Shown: positions 18,334-20,316 of the stretch, one piece after another
Position numbering within the stretch: position 1 is the stretch's first letter
Layout of the letters: each line of letters begins with the position of its first letter
Source: Shigella phage sb4
Reading direction: 5' to 3' (one strand)
Sequence record: PQ666542
DNA length: 64,000 bases
Program-made: the position numbers and the translations under genes
The notes under the pieces: model-generated
Seen by the model: the letters and a program-made list of their open reading frames with translations, nothing else
Databases searched by the model: none
Told to the model about the DNA's origin: nothing

Positions 18334-20316
18334 ATGGCAAATACCCCTGTAAATTATCAATTAACAAGAACAGCAAATGCTATTCCCGAGATATTCGTCG
18401 GGGGTACATTTGCTGAAATAAAACAAAACCTCATTGAATGGCTTAATGGTCAAAATGAATTTTTGGATTATGATTTTGAAGGCTCAAGATTAAACGTTCT
18501 GTGTGACCTTTTGGCTTATAATACATTATACATTCAGCAGTTTGGTAATGCTGCCGTGTATGAAAGCTTTATGCGTACTGCTAACTTACGTAGTTCAGTA
18601 GTTCAAGCGGCGCAAGATAATGGATATTTACCTACTTCAAAATCAGCTGCTCAAACTGAAATTATGCTAACTTGTACAGACGCATTGAATAGAAATTACA
18701 TTACTATTCCTCGTGGTACTCGCTTTTTTGCATATGCAAAAGATACTTCTGTTAATCCTTACAACTTTGTATCTACCGAAGATGTTATCGCTATTTGCGA
18801 TAAAAATAACCAATATTTTCCGCGTTTAAAATTAGCTCAGGGACGTATAGTAAGAACTGAAATCATTTATGATAAATTAACACCTATTATCATTTATGAC
18901 AAAAATATAGATAGAAACCAAGTTAAACTATACGTCGATGAAGCAGAATGGATTAACTGGACAAGAAAGTCAATGGTTCATGCTGGTTCTACATCAACAA
19001 TTTACTACATGCGTGAAACTATTGATGGAAATACTGAGTTTTATTTTGGTGAAGGTGAGATTTCTGTTAATGCGGCAGAAGGAGCATTAACTGCTAATTA
19101 TATTGGGGGTCTTAAACCTACTCAGAACTCTACGATTGTTATTGAGTATATCAGTACTAACGGTGCGGATGCGAATGGCGCAGTCGGATTTTCATACGCA
19201 GATACATTAACAAATATAACTGTCATCAATATTAATGAAAACCCAAACGATGACCCAGATTTTGTTGGGGCAGATGGCGGCGGTGACCCAGAAGATATTG
19301 AACGTATTCGCGAATTGGGTACTATTAAACGCGAAACTCAGCAACGCTGCGTAACTGCGACTGACTATGATACATTCGTTTCAGAGAGATTTGGTTCTAT
19401 TATTCAAGCAGTTCAGACTTTCACTGATTCTACTAATCCTGGTTATGCAATTATTGCTGCTAAACCTAAATCAGGTCTGTAATAAACAACCGTACAGCGC
19501 GAGGATATTAAAAATTATCTCAAAGACTATAATTTAGCTCCTATTACACCATCAATTATTTCTCCTAATTTTCTTTTTATTAATACTAATTTAAAATTCA
19601 CATATGCTTTAAATAAGCTGCAAGAATCCGAACAGTGGCTAGAAGGTCAAATAATTGATAAAATTGATCGTTATTATACCGAAGATGTAGAAATTTTTAA
19701 TTCATCTTTCGCTAAATATAAGATGTTGACATATGTAGATGATGCAGATCATTATATTATTGGCTCATCGGCGACAATTCAGATGGTACGTGAAGTACAA
19801 AACTTCTATAAAACGCCTGAAGCGGGTATTAAATACAAAAATCAAATAAAAGATCGTTCTATGGAATCTAATACGTTTTCATTTAATTCCGGACGAAAGG
19901 TTGTAAATCCTGATACTGGCTTAGAAGAAGATGTATTATATGACGTTCGCATAGTATCAACAGACCGAGATTCTAAAGGAATTGGTAAAGTTATTATTGG
20001 TCCATTTGCTTCTGGCGATGTTACAGAAAATGAAAACATTCAGCCATATTCAGGCAACGATTTTAACAAATTAGCAAATTCTGATGGACGCGACAAATAC
20101 TATGTTATCGGTGAAATAAATTATCCAGCTGATGTGATTTATTTGAATATCGCTAAAATTAATTTAACATCTGAAAAATTTGAAGTTCAGACTATTGAAT
20201 TATATTCTGACCCAACCGATGATGTTATCTTTACTCGCGATGGTTCGCTGATTGTATTTGAAAATGACTTACGTCCACAATACTTAACTATCGATTTGGA
20301 GCCTATATCACAATGA
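18334..20316 (+). pseudogene. 6: gp6 baseplate wedge interrupted by tandem TAA TAA
   Basis: 660-codon frame as in T4; two adjacent stops at 19480-19485; same frame open on both sides. Confidence 0.9.

Follow-up and report, generated by a model that had tools for sequence, protein, structure and literature searches.

A tandem ochre stop in gene 6 of a Shigella phage genome record is best explained as an error in the record

We analyzed a 64,000-nucleotide stretch of Shigella phage sb4 (PQ666542), referred to below as the window, in which two adjacent TAA codons break gene 6, the gene for the baseplate wedge protein gp6. Judged by comparison with related phages, the double stop is very probably an error of the sequence record rather than a trait of a functional phage genome. 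The window carries a layer of substitution changes that are private to it, unselected and clustered, and that extend over its whole length except for one block of 4.7 kb. The underlying phage is an ordinary natural mosaic Tequatrovirus of the group that includes pSs-1 and sb1-sb3.

The double stop in gene 6

TAATAA is read at positions 19480-19485 in the frame of gene 6, which begins with ATG at 18334, ends with TGA at 20314-20316, and has 382 sense codons before the double stop and 276 after it. This interruption was the subject of the original prediction, made from the letters alone, and can be read directly in the sequence. The prediction had also named the gene as gp6, which is borne out by end-to-end alignment with gp6 of T4 (PDB 5hx2_D, 660 amino acids): residues 1-660 fall on residues 1-660 with an E-value of 0 and 1436 bits, and Tyr383-Leu384 of the T4 protein occupy the positions of the window's two stops. 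The order gp5.4-gp6-gp7 is that of annotated relatives, with a 4-nt overlap between gp6 and gp7. Two features of a T4-type gp6 were found here, full-length collinearity and the position between gp5.4 and gp7; the third, an uninterrupted frame of 660 amino acids, was not. Compared with T4 gp6, the window's protein has 16 amino-acid changes elsewhere; of those that could be placed, most are window-private transversions.

Where the window reads CTG TAA TAA ACA ACC, relatives read CTG TAT TTA ACT ACT. Three of these four differences are private T>A changes. Those at 19482 and 19484 make the two stops and the one at 19488 is synonymous (ACT>ACA); T is present at all three positions in seven of seven comparators. 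There is no indel at the double stop, and gene 6 has the same length in the window and in Shigella phage pSs-1.

We searched for the stops in other sequences. A 60-nt query covering the site matched 505 records of T4-like phages, none of which has the stops; the best identity was 93.3%, so that each of the 505 has four or more mismatches to the window among the 60 bases. The exact 32-mer across the double stop had no match in IMG/VR, GTDB genomes or JGI metagenomes, the 382-amino-acid gp6 fragment was not found in the gene-position index, and complete E. coli genomes contained no match. A natural gene boundary in orthologues had been set beforehand as the refuting test, and none was found in the matching records. 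In every annotation inspected gp6 is one continuous gene, except in sb1, where it is broken at another place. The next in-frame ATG, GTG or TTG past the double stop is at 19723, 79 codons downstream (ORF 19723-20316).

Real stops would cut gp6 short after residue 382 and remove most of its structurally solved C-terminal fragment (residues 334-660). Such a truncation, together with the stops in other essential genes, would prevent plaque formation.

Table 1. Gene 6 and other features of the window, with positions counted from its first base
Feature	Position	Strand	Basis
Gene 6, baseplate wedge protein gp6, 660 codons, broken at codons 383-384	18334-20316	+	Full-length alignment to T4 gp6, synteny, translation
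TAA TAA (codons 383-384); TAT TTA (Tyr-Leu) in relatives	19480-19485	+	
Three window-private T>A transversions (19482, 19484, 19488) within 7 nt	19482-19488	+	
276 gp6 codons left untranslated	19486-20313	+	
denV, start lost (ATG>ATT)	3393-3395	-	
Lysozyme gene e, near-adjacent stop pair: codon 97 TGT>TGA, codon 99 TTG>TAG	3653-3661	-	
Noise-free block, small ORFs between nudE and the tRNA cluster	4464-9210		Comparison with pSs-1
Two small ORFs and gp25, frameshifting length differences from pSs-1	10494-10779 (-2), 11194-11380 (+1), 52242-52639 (gp25, -1)		
Gene 5, premature TGA (TGG>TGA), codon 544	17404-17406	+	
Gene 7, three premature TAA, starting at 20661, 21792 and 23160	20661-23162	+	Also seen as ORF fragments
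Gene 10, premature TAA	26064-26066	+	
Gene 12, two premature stops: TAA at 27814, TAG at 28645	27814-28647	+	
Stops in genes 13 (31266), 14 (31831, 32194), 15 (32934) and 16 (33722)	31266-33724	+	
gp24, premature stop	45247		
rnlB, premature stops	46769, 46721, 46715, 46145	-	
uvsW, premature stops	49616, 49817, 50183		
Small ORF upstream of uvsY, stop lost (TAA>TAT) at its low end	51538-51762	-	
gp26, premature stop	53013	-	
gp27, premature stops	54389, 55115		
gp28, premature stops	55461, 55488		
gp48, premature stop	58234		

Premature stops across the window

We projected the genes of pSs-1 onto the window, translated them, and compared the 69 genes of unchanged length codon for codon. The window and pSs-1 are collinear, with 97.8% identity over positions 1-43976 and 96.4% over 40000-63999; base 1 of the window corresponds approximately to position 63,980-63,994 of co-oriented relatives. 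The comparison revealed 33 premature stops, with TAA, TAG and TGA all represented, distributed over 20 of the 69 genes. Reverting the window-private bases removes 31 of them. The affected essential genes are those for gp5, gp6 (two stops), gp7 (three), gp10, gp12 (two), gp13, gp14 (two), gp15, gp16, gp24, gp26, gp27 (two), gp28 (two) and gp48. Stops also occur in lysozyme e (two), rnlB (four), uvsW (three), two internal-protein genes and one small ORF, and alt carries two further stops. Most of the genes hit are, according to established T4 genetics, each essential on their own, and 14 essential morphogenesis genes hold stops here. The stop pair in lysozyme e arises, like that in gp6, from two changes of the same type, and codons 19 and 21 of rnlB form another close pair. 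A lost start, a lost stop and frameshifting length differences complete the list (Table 1).

There are also length differences from pSs-1 that keep the frame: gene 1 has two, of 6 and 12 nt, and gp67 has one of 24 nt. With its two differences gene 1 has the same length as in sb2, and these two look natural.

Number and selection of private substitutions

Private sites were defined by comparing the window with five to seven relatives over positions 1-43976 and with three relatives over 44000-64000. This gave 422 sites in the first part and 316 in the second, and the whole window holds about 360 private transversions. The ratio of transitions to transversions among private sites is 190:213 in the window, compared with 88:16, 111:29, 298:79 and 296:79 in real relatives.

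Of the private sites in coding sequence at positions 1-43976, 187 are missense, 148 synonymous and 19 nonsense; with the spectrum kept and the positions drawn at random, 21.6 nonsense changes would be expected. Over the whole window the 33 observed stops compare with 36.8 ± 5.6 expected from random placement. The stops are therefore neither enriched nor purged, and the same agreement rules out a deliberate enrichment of stops. The private changes of real relatives lie typically at third codon positions, and nonsense changes among them number zero in four of the five. Private transversions in the window fall on codon positions 1, 2 and 3 in the ratio 59:67:50 and comprise 140 missense, 22 synonymous and 14 nonsense changes. 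Being private and blind to both codon position and meaning, these variants behave as expected of an error in the record.

Private transitions are distributed differently: 120 are synonymous vs 39 missense, they fall mainly on third codon positions, and they resemble natural variation. We can thus rule out that all private sites are noise, both from these transitions and from a cluster of differences in a tRNA gene that proved to be a genuine T4 allele.

The gene in question encodes tRNA-Gln (10323-10396, - strand) and has eight differences from the pSs-1 group at 10354-10370. The anticodon stem reads UAGCA/UGCUA instead of CUGGA/UCCAG and loop positions 32 and 38 are changed, the whole being fully compensated. 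The window's allele is 100% identical to that of T4 and at least 99% identical in 113 records. Judged from these records, Tequatrovirus has two tRNA-Gln alleles in circulation, of which the window carries that of T4 within a pSs-1-like backbone.

Between gp18 and gp19, in the region 37710-38511, lies an optional ORF (37780-38397) without differences from pSs-1. The ORF is present in pSs-1 and partly in sb2, is absent from Ec_MI-02 and 4E10, and may be a mobile insert.

Spectrum, clustering and unevenness of the substitutions

Of 213 private transversions, 178 (84%) lead to A or T, and C<->G changes are almost absent. Through private transversions the window has lost a net of about 89 G or C bases over its 64 kb (0.14%), which is the same as the deficit of the phage of this record (TMC4) vs its sibling AKR2. 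C>A changes favour an AT-rich 3' flank and G>T changes show the mirror image, so the underlying process is symmetric between the strands. We looked for C/G enrichment near the transversions, as miscalls caused by modified cytosines would produce, and found none: overall the flanks have the background composition, and only C>A and G>T prefer AT-rich flanks. Miscalling next to modified cytosines was rejected on these grounds. A literature search on base-calling errors at T4 hydroxymethylcytosine found nothing specific, and the genome was in any case sequenced by Illumina (PMC11993411).

The changes are clustered. Gaps of ≤ 3 nt between changes occur 14 times vs 3.4 expected, and among 54 close transversion pairs 23 repeat one type of change (9.6 ± 2.8 expected). 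When private substitutions were placed independently at random, an adjacent stop pair appeared somewhere in the window in 7.7% of trials, and three or more stop pairs within two codons, as observed in gp6, lysozyme e and rnlB, in just 0.1%. The original prediction had argued that two stops in adjacent codons are not independent hits, and in this it was right. The reason is that substitutions cluster locally by type, and the dependence is not a sign of design. The prediction had offered two origins, a deliberate double-stop cassette or a single larger substitution. The second is close to what is seen, a single event with three T>A changes clustered within 7 nt, and the first did not hold up: nothing is inserted, the length is unchanged, and 19 other genes carry similar lesions, at no fewer than 31 places.

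The layer is also uneven. The 4.7-kb block at 4464-9210 is identical to pSs-1 except at about 7841-7856 and has zero private sites; other relatives differ by 1-8% in this block. In the 460 bases to its left the window is about 5% different from pSs-1. The block may be a stretch patched from the pSs-1 reference or the result of a very recent exchange. Uniform random noise is ruled out by this noise-free block together with the clustering.

Sibling records

The window's record is one of four from phages isolated from Kolkata lake water, grown, and sequenced on Illumina NovaSeq, with de novo assembly by SKESA and a library protocol that includes a PCR step and 50 ng of input (PMC11993411). The four are ADG1 (sb1, PQ666539; 285 proteins, 35.16% G+C), AKR2 (sb2, PQ666540; 254 proteins, 35.49%), CRD3 (sb3, PQ666541; 255 proteins, 35.52%) and TMC4 (PQ666542; 291 proteins, 35.35%) (PMC11993411). 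ADG1 and TMC4 have inflated protein counts (285 and 291 vs 254-255) and the lowest G+C of the four.

The sb1 record resembles the window in belonging to the same clade, with the same gene order, and in having several essential structural genes, including gp6, annotated in pieces. Its annotation (3230-19337) has gp3, gp6, gp9, gp10 and gp12 in two pieces and gp5 truncated. We counted 366 private substitutions in 24 kb of sb1, of which 138 are transversions, with an excess towards A or T and zero C<->G. Unlike the window, sb1 has gp6 broken near codon 35 and TAT TTA intact at codons 383-384, and its substitutions include relatively more G:C>T:A, fewer A<->T and less clustering by type (3 of 7 close pairs).

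Two further observations concern these siblings. The sb2 record has its tail sheath gene in two pieces (35762-37585), a shortened denV and three private nonsense changes. The window and sb1 have in common 17 alleles that only these two carry, against five unanimous relatives; the sites are 12666, 15176, 15179, 24509, 24945, 25220, 25229 and 10 others, with several transversions and two close pairs among them. Natural variation common to the lake population could explain these alleles, and so could systematic errors common to both records.

Origin of the double stop

An error in the record would account for the double stop as follows. A natural mosaic genome would have been overlaid with about 0.5-0.7% of extra substitutions unfiltered by selection, mainly transversions towards A or T and often as short runs of a single change along one strand. 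One such run, of three T>A changes in 7 nt, would have met TAT TTA ACT at gp6 codons 383-385 and turned it into TAA TAA ACA; since TAT and TTA are each a single T>A step from TAA, the run would yield a tandem TAA. We infer that the layer entered the deposited genome during its sequencing, assembly or consensus building. The noise-free block weighs against a record error in that it requires an additional assumption, for example a patch from the pSs-1 reference. Also against it are that Illumina NovaSeq with SKESA normally gives consensus errors far below 0.5%, and that the rarity of C<->G, the context dependence and the strand symmetry would fit real polymerase or damage errors too.

We considered whether the window was altered or generated by computer, for example by perturbing a natural genome or by a sequence model, with the stops as by-products. 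The absence of the exact 32-mer from the three collections searched, the lack of any 382-amino-acid product on record, and changes that ignore coding constraints all agree with this. We nevertheless regard it as unlikely: uniform noise would make C>G as frequent as C>A and give about one transition per two transversions, would not spare a 4.7-kb block, and would produce neither same-type clusters nor a flank dependence on both strands, and the deposited sibling sb1 shows a similar syndrome. The phage collection searched includes sb1-sb3 but not PQ666542, which would simply account for the lack of a match.

Quite unlikely as well is that the substitutions were real in DNA that was sequenced but not viable, whether damaged, mutagenised, or amplified with many errors from very few templates, the polymerase errors then becoming consensus. 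Polymerase and damage error spectra typically have rare G<->C and frequent A<->T and G:C>T:A changes, and the spectrum seen here is of that kind, with its strand symmetry, context dependence and strand-coordinated clusters. The PCR step from 50 ng of input (PMC11993411) would offer an occasion for such errors. However, a consensus of many independent molecules would average them out, high-fidelity PCR stays far below 0.5% per site, and the noise-free block would be left unaccounted for.

A highly improbable variant is that the stops and the clustered A/T-ward transversions are real in phage DNA. They would then reflect either strong host suppression that lets the phage tolerate all three stop codons in frame, or a kind of mutagenic attack on T4-type DNA not described so far, with the resulting DNA packaged and sequenced.

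An engineered double-stop knockout of gene 6 is barely conceivable. Two ochre codons in a row are often used to make a knockout tight, and the two stops are indeed adjacent, but we found only point substitutions, with no foreign block, insertion, scar, marker or length change. A third, silent T>A lies 4 nt downstream, and gp6 itself has its 16 additional missense changes. Nor is the lesion confined to the target gene: besides frameshifts and the loss of one start and one stop, other genes carry no fewer than 31 stops, of all three kinds and with the same substitution signature.

Just as barely conceivable is that the stops are read through or recoded by a suppressor tRNA or an altered code, or that gp6 is naturally split in this lineage. 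The window does have a cluster of 10 phage tRNA genes, and T4 tRNA genes can mutate to suppressors, but all 10 have ordinary sense anticodons and no suppressor was found among them. Reassignment of a stop codon is ruled out, as each of TAA, TAG and TGA is found both within frames and at the ends of genes; moreover, the stops replace at least seven different amino-acid types. A naturally split gp6 is likewise excluded, because the boundary occurs in none of the 505 matching records and no start codon follows the stops for 79 codons.

A record error thus remains the preferred reading, and it has consequences for use of the data. Pseudogenes, split genes, recoding and engineered knockouts are signals that the noise layer is expected to mimic, and the window should therefore not be mined for them. 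The sb1 record and PQ666542 are deposited T4-like genomes with inflated or corrupted gene counts and protein sequences, and corrupted records of this kind can contaminate protein databases and comparative analyses.

Comparison with known systems

Gene 6 of T4 (PDB 5hx2, 5iv5, 3h2t) has 660 codons and the neighbours gp5.4 and gp7, as in the window; unlike the window, its frame is intact at codons 383-384. The classical amber and ochre conditional-lethal mutants in morphogenesis genes of T4 also resemble the window in having a one-base nonsense change in an essential baseplate gene, and TAT>TAA and TTA>TAA are one-step changes as in those mutants. Classical mutants have one or a few defined stops of one kind and need a suppressor host, whereas the window has at least 33 stops of three kinds, many missense changes and frameshifts, and lacks a suppressor tRNA.
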